Source of the DNA: Escherichia coli
GTDB lineage: Bacteria; Pseudomonadota; Gammaproteobacteria; Enterobacterales; Enterobacteriaceae
Direction: 5' to 3' (one strand)
Assembly (NCBI RefSeq): GCF_003334255.1
Contig: NZ_QOWU01000100.1
Length of the DNA: 6,492 nt
Within the stretch, counting starts at the first letter, position 1, and every line of letters starts with the position of its first letter. The position numbers and the translations under genes were made by a program. This document shows positions 753 through 2,455 of the stretch, piece after piece. The notes beneath the pieces were generated by a model. It did not search any database. It was not told where the DNA came from and saw only the letters and a list, made by a program, of their open reading frames with translations.

Positions 753-1094
753 ATGGTTATCTTGTCAATAGACTATGCAAAAAAGCTACGTCAAATACGC
801 AAGGCTGAAGGGCTAACGCAAAAGGAATTTGCGGATATTACGGGGTTGTCTTTAGCTGCCATAAGGAACTATGAATCAGGGCAAAAAAGCGCCAGAGCCA
901 AAATTGTTGAGATGGTTCTCCAAGTTGATCGGTTTGAAAAATACATGATGTGGCTAATAAAAGATAAGACAATGCCTGCTGCCGGTCAGATAGCCCCGGC
1001 TCTCTCTCTTGATGGCTCCATTCAGTCGGAGGGCGATCAGGTTTCAATCGGCATTACCCAAAAATCACCCCGATCTCGTCGCAATGCTGGCTAA
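753..1094 (+). CDS. P2 C-type immunity repressor (XRE-family helix-turn-helix), 113 aa
   Basis: ATG at 753 with GAGAGG about 10 nt upstream. The N-terminal HTH (LRQIRKAEGLTQKEFADITGLSLAAIRNYESGQ) and the motif FEKYMMWL...GQIAPAL resemble what I recall of P2 C repressor (YESGR...FTKYTLWF...GQIAPAL). The gene is immediately upstream of int on the same strand (70-nt gap), as in the C-int operon of P2. Confidence 0.75.
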   Translation: MVILSIDYAKKLRQIRKAEGLTQKEFADITGLSLAAIRNYESGQKSARAKIVEMVLQVDRFEKYMMWLIKDKTMPAAGQIAPALSLDGSIQSEGDQVSIGITQKSPRSRRNAG

Positions 1095-1163
1095 CGCTGT
1101 ACATCGAGCGGGTTTCATCCCGTAGAGAGTGTACGGCTGATTCATCCGTTGGAGGGGCTAATC

Positions 1164-2156
1164 ATGTCGATTAAGCAACTCAAAGACGGGCGTTATAAGG
1201 TTGATGTAAGACCGCAAGGGACGGAAGGAAAGCGGATCCGTAAGATTTTTACCCTGAAGTCAAAGGCACAGGAGTTTGAAAGGTATGTTTTGCAGAATTT
1301 CCACGATAAACCGTGGCAGGCCAAGCCAGCTGATCAGCGTCGGTTATCCGAACTGATAGATGCCTGGTGGGTGCTTGATGGCCGGAATCAGCCTTACGGG
1401 GATACTTACAGGGTCAGGCTGGAAAAAATAAACCGTGAGATGAGGGACCCCCGCGCCAGTGAGATGACGCGAAAGTTTATGCTCGGGTATCGTTCAGACA
1501 AATTACAGGCCGGATTAATGCCCTCCAGTGTTAATCGTGATTTGTGCGCCTTGTCTGCAATGTTTACCTCGCTGATTGATGCGGAGGTTTTCCATAACGA
1601 AAACCCGGTGCGTGGAATACGTAAGCTCAAGGTCAGGAATACAGAAATGGCCTTTCTTTCAGATGATGAGATTGATCGGCTGCTTGAACGACTCGAGGGG
1701 GATGCGCGTCGTGTTGCTGTTCTGTGTCTTTCCACTGGCGCAAGGTGGGGGGAAGCAGCTGGCTTACGTGGTGAGCATATCGTTGGTAACCGCGTAATGT
1801 TCTTTAACACAAAGAATGGAAAATCCCGCGCGGTTCCTGTTTCTGATACGGTGCTTTCGTTGATAAAAACCCGAAAAACCGGGCTATTGTACCAGGCTGA
1901 TTACATCCGTTTTCGGGATATCCTTCAGGAGGTGAAACCGGACTTACCCAAAGGTCAGGCGACTCACGTTATGCGTCACACGTTCGCCACGCATTTCATG
2001 ATGAACGGCGGAAATATCGTTACGTTACAGCGAATCCTTGGGCACGCCACGATTCAACAAACGATGACGTATGCGCATTTTTCACCGGACTTTTTACAGG
2101 ATGCGATTAGCTTTAATCCGCTGGCTGATAGTGTCCATAAACTGTCCATTGACTAG
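1164..2156 (+). CDS. int: P2-family tyrosine integrase (site-specific recombinase), 330 aa from the ATG at 1164
   Basis: Near-colinear similarity to P2 Int as remembered: N-terminal SIKQLKDGRYKVDVRPQG..GKRIRK, box I LSTGARWGEA, box II HVMRHTFATHFMMNGGNI.TLQRILGH, and the catalytic Tyr in TMTYAHF. RBS GGAGGGG at 1151-1157, 6 nt before the ATG at 1164. The ORF track's 1149 start is a TTG lying upstream of the RBS. Confidence 0.9.
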   Translation: MSIKQLKDGRYKVDVRPQGTEGKRIRKIFTLKSKAQEFERYVLQNFHDKPWQAKPADQRRLSELIDAWWVLDGRNQPYGDTYRVRLEKINREMRDPRASEMTRKFMLGYRSDKLQAGLMPSSVNRDLCALSAMFTSLIDAEVFHNENPVRGIRKLKVRNTEMAFLSDDEIDRLLERLEGDARRVAVLCLSTGARWGEAAGLRGEHIVGNRVMFFNTKNGKSRAVPVSDTVLSLIKTRKTGLLYQADYIRFRDILQEVKPDLPKGQATHVMRHTFATHFMMNGGNIVTLQRILGHATIQQTMTYAHFSPDFLQDAISFNPLADSVHKLSID

Positions 2157-2159
2157 TTG

Positions 2160-2177
2160 TAATTTGCGTTAATTTGC
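2160..2177 (+). repeat. Tandem direct repeat TAATTTGC x2 with 10-bp periodicity, directly after the int stop; candidate integrase arm-type or accessory-protein binding site
   Basis: TAATTTGC occurs at 2160-2167 and again at 2170-2177, read directly from the sequence. Position next to int and the att-like palindrome suggests an att function. No binding data. Confidence 0.3.
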
Positions 2178-2228
2178 TCCCCTTTTTTTGATTTAGTCAT
2201 TGAAAAATAAGTAAATCATCAAGGGGAG
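2178..2228. repeat. Nested imperfect palindrome, candidate attL core/crossover region (CTCCCCTT ... TGATTTA ... TAAATCA ... AAGGGGAG)
   Basis: Outer arms 2178-2185 and 2221-2228 are exact reverse complements, as are inner arms 2189-2195 and 2212-2218. The loop contains AAAAATAAG (2205-2213), which matches the start of the P2 att core as I remember it (AAAAAATAAGCCCGTGTAAGGGAGATT). It lies between the int stop and the native dmsA promoter. Confidence 0.35.
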
Positions 2229-2271
2229 TAAGGTGTGTTAAATCTCCTGCGGGCGCTTTTTTTGTCTCCCT

Positions 2272-2285
2272 TTGATACCGAACAA
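2272..2285 (+). promoter_or_regulatory. FNR box TTGATaccgAACAA of the dmsA promoter (class II activation site)
   Basis: Matches the FNR consensus TTGAT-N4-ATCAA in 8 of 10 positions and matches the dmsA FNR site as I recall it. Its centre (2278/2279) is 41.5 bp upstream of a predicted start near 2320, with a -10-like TAATAC at 2307-2312. Confidence 0.7.
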
Positions 2286-2306
2286 TAATTACTCCTCACT
2301 TACACG

Positions 2307-2320
2307 TAATACTACTTTCG
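2307..2320 (+). promoter_or_regulatory. Predicted dmsA P1 -10 hexamer (TAATAC, 2307-2312) and approximate transcription start (about 2319-2320)
   Basis: Inferred from the canonical class II FNR spacing (-41.5). This gives a 5' leader of about 136 nt ahead of the dmsA ATG at 2456. Not verified. Confidence 0.4.
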
Positions 2321-2372
2321 AGTGAAAATCTACCTATCTCTTTGATTTTCAAATTATTCGATGTATACAAGA

Positions 2373-2393
2373 CTATATAGCGAACTGCTATAG
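2373..2393. promoter_or_regulatory. TATA-rich dyad in the dmsA leader (CTATATAGCGAACTGCTATAG), possible ModE operator
   Basis: Two TAYAT-like half-sites about 15 bp apart. dmsABC is known to be molybdate/ModE-regulated, but I cannot recall the exact ModE site, so this is tentative. Confidence 0.25.
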
Positions 2394-2455
2394 AAATAAT
2401 TACACAATACGGTTTGTTACTGGAATCAATCGTGAGCAAGCTTGAGTGAGCCATT

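Follow-up and report, generated by a model that had tools for sequence, protein, structure and literature searches.

A P2-family prophage junction that splits the serS terminator upstream of dmsABC in Escherichia coli, with predicted read-through from the prophage C-int operon

Read-through from a prophage into a host anaerobic respiration operon had been predicted for a contig of Escherichia coli (NZ_QOWU01000100.1, assembly GCF_003334255.1). The stretch analyzed here, hereafter the window, comprises 6,492 nucleotides, and all coordinates given below are window positions. Judged by its sequence, the left 2.26 kb of the window is the right end of a P2-family prophage, and the dmsABC operon of E. 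coli follows. The original prediction held that the prophage repressor and integrase genes, C and int, are co-oriented with dmsABC, that no convincing intrinsic terminator lies between int and the dmsA promoter, and that transcription from the lysogenic promoter Pc could leak into the dmsA promoter region. The shared orientation was borne out, as C, int, dmsA, dmsB, and dmsC all lie on the plus strand. The genes concerned are as follows:

124 to 648, minus strand: cox-like early regulator of 174 amino acids, the first gene of the divergent early operon (open reading frame; phrog_23196, 'transcriptional regulator', E 2.7e-120)
753 to 1094, plus strand: C-type immunity repressor of 113 amino acids with a helix-turn-helix (P2 C, 35% identity over 80 amino acids, E 2e-21; phrog_147, E 5e-29)
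1164 to 2156, stop codon at 2154-2156, plus strand: P2-type tyrosine integrase of 330 amino acids from the RefSeq start, ATG 1164; the mechanical open reading frame begins at TTG 1149 (P2 Int, 52% identity over 334 amino acids, E 5e-134; phrog_1, E 3.6e-71)
2456 to 6393, plus strand: dmsABC operon (dmsA 2456-4900, dmsB 4911-5528, dmsC 5530-6393)

A divergent cox-like gene, a C-type repressor, and then a tyrosine integrase adjoining the junction constitute the gene order of the P2 family. In JNEC-KY208, a complete P2-type prophage of 37 kb occupies precisely the space from serS to dmsA, and the genes of this element in the RefSeq annotation include those for a P2-family capsid, GPO scaffold, terminase, portal, tail sheath and tube, gpD, ogr, and a replication endonuclease. 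In P2, C and int form a single lysogenic operon transcribed from Pc (PMC3936717, PMC1904263). Between C and int of the window, no terminator was found by either a consensus scan or a scan for hairpins followed by a U-tail.

By alignment with K-12, the interval that follows int is the attR of a P2-family prophage inserted in the intrinsic terminator of serS. Its features, and the nearest element of the dmsA promoter, are listed here:

2132 to 2149, plus strand: two direct TGTCCAT repeats, 11 bp apart, in the 3' end of int; candidate arm-type Int sites (read from the sequence)
2157 to 2263: attR
2173 to 2232, plus strand: conserved 60-nt element, an inverted repeat or hairpin, separating int from the core (-24.6 kcal/mol, z -5.3) and containing CTCCCC-T7
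2243 to 2247, plus strand: phage TCTCC in place of GCGCC, the 5' arm of the serS terminator in the K-12 alignment
2246 to 2255: att core and crossover, CCTGCGGGCG
2252 to 2263, plus strand: orphaned 3' arm of the serS terminator (GGCGC) and T7 tract
2272 to 2285, plus strand: dmsA FNR box, TTGATaccgAACAA, identical in K-12

In K-12, the region 3' of serS reads AAAAAGCGCC-TGCG-GGCGCTTTTTTT. This sequence folds compactly into a hairpin (-14.9 to -16.3 kcal/mol, z -3.9) that is flanked by an A-run on its 5' side and a T-run on its 3' side, and the dmsA FNR box lies 8 bp further on. The window matches K-12 from 2246 onward, and attR ends at 2263, 8 bp upstream of the same box. Because CCTGCGGGCG is common to the attL of JNEC-KY208 (AAAAAGCGCCTGCGGGCGGTTTTTGCATGAG), the attR of the window (TTAAATCTCCTGCGGGCGCTTTTTTTG), and the attB of K-12 (AAAAAGCGCCTGCGGGCGCTTTTTTTG), the crossover falls within the serS terminator, in its loop and 3' arm. 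What remains at attR is the 3' half, namely GCGGGCGC at 2249-2256 followed by T7 at 2257-2263; the U-tract is present, and a G+C-rich hairpin at 2243-2256 is not. Two G-to-T differences from K-12, at 2243 and 2245, leave two of the five stem pairs mismatched, and the 46 nt around this T-run fold at -8.1 kcal/mol (z +0.18), no better than shuffled sequences, compared with -16.3 kcal/mol (z -3.9) for the K-12 equivalent. The terminator is missing at attR because its GCGCC 5' arm was left at attL and the TCTCC contributed by the phage is unable to pair with the orphaned 3' arm.

The absence of an intrinsic terminator between int and the dmsA promoter was confirmed by both scans. The consensus scan returned no terminator-like site on either strand of 600-2600, where 2.2 were expected in shuffled sequences, and the hairpin-plus-U-tail scan found nothing terminator-like in 2157-2320, nor between C and the dmsA promoter P1. 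The latter scan recovers the serS terminator of K-12 (-14.9 kcal/mol), the attR of UTI89 (-14.0 kcal/mol), and the phage terminators at attL. The original prediction had also named two T-runs, neither of which was thought to follow a clean hairpin. Both runs are present, each one base away from where it had been placed: CTCCCC at 2177-2182 with T7 at 2183-2189, and the serS remnant described above. One correction applies to the first run, which is not devoid of a hairpin: it sits inside the 5' arm of the strong 2173-2232 hairpin and thus cannot act as a terminator tail. Two further pairings were rejected as terminators for being weak, wide-looped, or in competition with that hairpin, namely a 5-bp G-U-rich stem with a 12-nt loop that uses the U7, and a long-range GGGAG/CUCCC pairing across 2224-2270 (-10.6 kcal/mol).

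The terminator carried by the phage itself lies at the opposite end of the prophage. This element, AAAAGCCCGCAG...CGGGCTTTGTTTTT (also given as AAAAGCCCGCAG...CGGGCTTTGTTTTTCTTT; -14.8 to -16.4 kcal/mol), is found on the int strand approximately 95 nt past the core at attL. It belongs to the far arm of attP, next to hok/ogr, and stands behind serS once the phage is integrated. In the circular phage, it would end the transcript leaving int across attP; since it lies across attP from int, integration moves it to attL, away from the C-int transcript. Together with the split serS terminator and its unpaired phage arm, this displacement explains the missing terminator. Phage lambda offers a parallel in sib, a cis element that likewise acts on the 3' end of the int RNA across attP and is separated from int by integration. 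The lambda element, which mediates retroregulation of int, is an RNase III site that destabilizes the int message made from pL, whereas the element displaced here is an ordinary intrinsic terminator.

A natural contrast comes from related prophages at this site. A 48-nt junction query (blastn) retrieved 343 E. coli genomes in which this junction is occupied by a prophage. In 292 of them, the alignment covered 36 nt with two mismatches, defining the AGCGCC type; the attR of these lysogens reads AAAGCGCC and forms a perfect terminator (-14.0 kcal/mol) that ends in U7. The full-length alignments (51 of 343) comprise 14 genomes of the window type and approximately 37 with a Ch1-like ATCTCC or Bongo-like ACCTCC. 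Window-type lysogens include STEC2018-607, JNEC-KY208, and SCU-106. A terminator-less attR thus characterizes a 15% minority, and 85% of the related prophages at this site rebuild the terminator. The P88-like elements, found in UTI89, EC958, other ST131 strains, and others, share the insertion point, orientation, arm repeats, and hairpin with the window prophage, and their Int is 88% identical. They differ in the phage-side arm (GTTAAAGCGCC; AAAGCGCC at the junction), which rebuilds a complete terminator at attR. At attL, the serS terminator is also weakened, with a G-G stem mismatch and U5 in the window type, and with an intact stem followed by only UUU in the P88 type. At this end, a strong phage terminator located approximately 95 nt beyond it serves as a backup and precedes one or two hok/gef genes.

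The ATCTCC type, with an identical or near-identical int, also occurs at the lysQ-nadA terminator, which reads AAAAAAGCGCC-CTAAA-GGCGCTTTTTT in K-12, and beside rraA. This distribution suggests that hairpin-type terminators are the usual targets of the type. In the nadA case, comparison with the empty site of K-12 shows the 5' arm of the host terminator hairpin replaced by phage TCTCC. The int gene points at nadA in the lysQ-nadA insertion and is convergent with rraA in the other (locus L011, 5130-5300, S19-651; L016, 220-350, SCU-115; L018, 800-850, K-12).

Recombination by this Int at this core is suggested by the 343 independent genome records that share the junction and by two other terminators at which this int and arm recur. 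At attL, the opposite arm holds the repeat pair seen in the 3' end of int, TGTCCATATAATGTCCAT, and P2 has GTGTCCACACAGTGTCCACA at the equivalent place, where it is annotated as the Int P' arm. A tRNA gene was considered as an integration target, and none is present in the window. Matches to the IHF consensus in 2157-2245, checked by eye, are partial. When attP was rebuilt from attL and attR and folded, a hairpin spanned the core and lacked a U-tail.

P2 is organized in the same way. In that phage, the order runs int, P' arm, Cox sites, core, IHF site, P arm, and an annotated rho-independent terminator beside ogr, with no terminator annotated between int and the core. Gene order (cox, divergent C and int, then att) is common to the two phages, whose Int and C proteins are 52% and 35% identical, respectively. 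Each also has arm-type repeats in pairs, one pair where int ends and one in the far arm, as well as AAATCTCC as the left half of its core and a single strong terminator, located next to ogr past the far arm. They differ in that attB here is the serS terminator, which is not a known P2 site, in that a 60-nt inverted repeat stands where P2 has cox-boxes, and in that the prophage here has hok/gef genes at its left end. The Cox-like proteins differ as well. At 174 amino acids, the product of 124-648 is approximately twice as long as P2 Cox (91 amino acids) and falls in a PHROG family of its own, phrog_23196; RefSeq names it 'hypothetical' in the lineage of the window and 'Cox family DNA-binding protein' in related prophages. 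Given that P2 is built alike, the absence of a terminator separating int from the flanking host DNA is a family trait, except where the host half-site restores one.

Whether this gap matters to dmsABC depends on what enters and leaves the C-int operon, for which two further features are relevant:

649 to 752: switch region between the cox-like gene and C, with hexamer candidates whose convergent layout was chosen by analogy with the annotated Pe and Pc of P2 (PMC1904263)
2243 to 2372, plus strand: C-rich, G-poor stretch, candidate Rho loading region (C/G 2.0-3.6 in 78-nt windows)

In the switch region, a permissive hexamer scan yielded weak matches for a candidate Pc on the plus strand, TTGCGT (660-665) and CATCAT (682-687) separated by 16 nt, and a candidate Pe on the minus strand, TTGAGT (752-747) and GATACT (729-724) separated by 17 nt. 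A perfect 9-bp palindrome, AGATACTCG-TG-CGAGTATCT, occupies 711-730 in the same region, where candidate -10 elements of either strand overlap it. This palindrome is a possible operator, although the C protein of P2 is reported to bind direct repeats rather than palindromes (PMC1904263).

Downstream, the FNR site of dmsABC is centered at -41.5 (PMC3688515 Table 1), which by simple arithmetic would put the start of dmsA P1 near 2320. With FNR and P1 so placed, a polymerase reading through from int would cross both the FNR box and the -10 region. The interval 2157-2455 contains no open reading frame longer than 17 codons, and read-through RNA would be untranslated for approximately 300 nt after int. 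Within this interval, 2243-2372 is the most C-rich, G-poor stretch of the window, for which C/G has a median of 0.89, a 95th percentile of 1.41, and a maximum of 3.67. It is rut-like and provides the untranslated, C-rich, G-poor RNA of approximately 80 nt or more that is expected of a Rho substrate. Rho-dependent termination is plausible because such RNA follows int.

The explanation that we consider somewhat more likely than not is a terminator-less attR that lets weak read-through from Pc pass over the dmsA promoter, with most of it ended by Rho and little net effect. In a lysogen of this lineage, a Pc transcript reaching the end of int would proceed through the FNR box and then the -10 region of dmsA P1. 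The flow is expected to be weak, and would most likely be stopped by Rho in or just after 2243-2372, before dmsA or early within it. The net result would be at most a slight interference with dmsABC expression or a slight FNR-independent addition to it. Our literature search found no relevant account of read-through out of P2 int.

Several points weigh against this explanation. A strict promoter scan found no site in the 649-752 switch region, and the position of Pc is proposed from weak hexamers and from analogy with P2. The activity of Pc, the read-through itself, the Rho step, and the size of the effect are likewise predictions from sequence only, with Rho dependence argued from base composition alone. 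The tolerance by P2 of the same terminator-less layout suggests that the flow out of int is too low to matter. In addition, the conserved hairpin after int could end or process the RNA without a U-tract. This last point leads to an alternative in which the 2173-2232 hairpin is the real 3' end of the C-int transcript, as a non-canonical terminator, a processing site, or a block to exonucleases, and little or no polymerase reaches host DNA. The hairpin is very stable, and across nine variants 97% of the cells of its outer helix are paired, including two pairs in which both partners have changed (U-A to C-G; C-G to A-U); for the whole structure, 93.6% of cells are paired, as opposed to 43-60% in slid controls. 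These data argue with moderate strength for maintenance of the inverted repeat, whether as RNA or as DNA. We nevertheless regard this alternative as improbable. No U-tract follows the hairpin in any variant, the canonical terminator of the P88 type would be redundant 12 nt downstream of the same hairpin, and an RNA processing site would not stop the polymerase. Moreover, Cox binds the equivalent part of attP in P2, which means that the inverted repeat could be a DNA-level feature, and symmetric protein sites can mimic covariation such as that seen in the nine related sequences compared.

The remaining alternatives concern how much transcription leaves the prophage. On one account, nothing of consequence does: few Pc transcripts are made, polarity or instability ends most of them inside C-int, and the missing terminator, without effect on expression, is a by-product of the phage core sequence. 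The ATCTCC half-core is common to P2 and recurs with a near-identical int at the lysQ-nadA and rraA terminators, which points to att-site specificity, rather than transcription, as the force shaping the sequence; the weakness of Pc fits as well. We judge this account unlikely, though a little less so than the hairpin serving as the 3' end, because int must be expressed from the operon for integration, so that some polymerases reach its end, and because neither scan detected a strong internal terminator candidate in 750-2156. The opposite account supposes a substantial flow from Pc into the dmsA coding region, resulting in aerobic or FNR-independent dmsABC expression or in a loss of anaerobic induction by promoter occlusion. 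No intrinsic terminator stands in the way, the ribosome-binding site and start codon of dmsA are intact and would be on the read-through RNA, and the retention of a terminator here by most related phages fits a read-through worth preventing. Nonetheless, Pc is the weaker promoter of the P2 switch (PMC1904263), the route covers 1.7 kb and then 300 nt of untranslated, C-rich RNA, and P2 itself does without a terminator between int and the core. Strong read-through is therefore quite improbable in our estimation, more so than either of the other two alternatives.

The structural premise of the original prediction is thus confirmed and explained, and its functional claim, that FNR-independent dmsABC expression or disturbed FNR/NarL control may result, is plausible and specific to this lineage. 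The case adds one more example to two familiar categories, P2-type attachment sites and possible prophage-host read-through. If the read-through of the favored explanation is real and measurable, the prophage would alter the regulation of an anaerobic respiration operon according to which half-terminator it carries. A natural control is built in, as hundreds of sequenced strains, including UTI89 and EC958, carry a closely related prophage that is inserted at the identical base pair and has an intact terminator. If true, the principle would be general for P2-type phages: the int transcript would be terminated only across attP, and each integration would expose the host flank to Pc unless the half-site rebuilds a terminator. 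Should read-through prove negligible, the finding would be a well-resolved description of an attachment site. A bolder proposal is that the two substitutions between AGCGCC and ATCTCC act as a natural insulation switch, such that in the 15% lacking the terminator lysogeny measurably rewires dmsABC (aerobic or FNR-independent expression, or occlusion of the FNR site), nadA is affected likewise, and the antisense RNA STnc130, described below, runs into int. We hold this to be very doubtful, the least probable of the proposals considered here.

A comparable border effect is known from Streptococcus pyogenes M1UK, where read-through from ssrA into speA is reported to be tied to terminator loss at a host-prophage border (PMC9951164). 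In both cases, the expression of a neighboring gene across such a border is linked to read-through. In the streptococcal case, the direction is from a host gene to a prophage toxin gene and the effect is reported to have been shown by experiment, whereas here it would run from prophage to host operon and is predicted (PMC9951164).

The junction also bears on a putative antisense RNA:

2231 to 2365, minus strand: match to Rfam STnc130 (RF02084), a putative small RNA (124.8 bits against a threshold of 55, model positions 1-135)

This match is antisense to the dmsA promoter, and the serS hairpin, read from the other strand, supplies its 3' terminator stem. The window scores 15 bits lower than K-12 (140.1 bits), and UTI89 scores 139.3 bits. 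Two non-canonical pairs are flagged in the 8-bp stem, and the intact 3' terminator stem is disrupted by the prophage junction in this lineage only. In this lineage, the STnc130 RNA, provided that it exists, would extend into int in antisense orientation. Near dmsA, STnc130 is listed only as a 'putative sRNA' (PMC3632133).

Some observations concern individual genomes and records. The T7 at 2183-2189, inside the conserved hairpin, arises from a private G-to-T change at 2185; close relatives read TTGTTTT, and that G pairs with C2220. Among the loci examined, T at 2185 is carried only by the window and DETEC-S792. In STEC2018-607, the closest genome (99.9% identical), the left end of the prophage is flanked by gyrA and a truncated DUF2138 gene rather than serS, and its record contains a second matching place, which suggests a chromosomal rearrangement between two P2-like prophages. 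Our literature search found no relevant account of a prophage at serS-dmsA. In the phage collection, no free-phage genome with this attP was found. Three near matches deposited as phage genomes (PV468777.1, ON470599.1, and ON470623.1) carry host dmsA beside int and are prophage excerpts with host flank, not packaged genomes.

Finally, the dmsA leader of the window contains a rare A at 2372, approximately +53 from P1. The exact 49-mer spanning 2335-2383 is present in 5 of 5349 E. coli genomes, and three of these five (G1/2, G6/7, and G8) carry the window-type prophage. The remaining 5344 genomes match with differences, and all 12 of the other loci examined have C at 2372. A2372 adjoins CTATATAGCG, part of a putative ModE site near 2373-2398.

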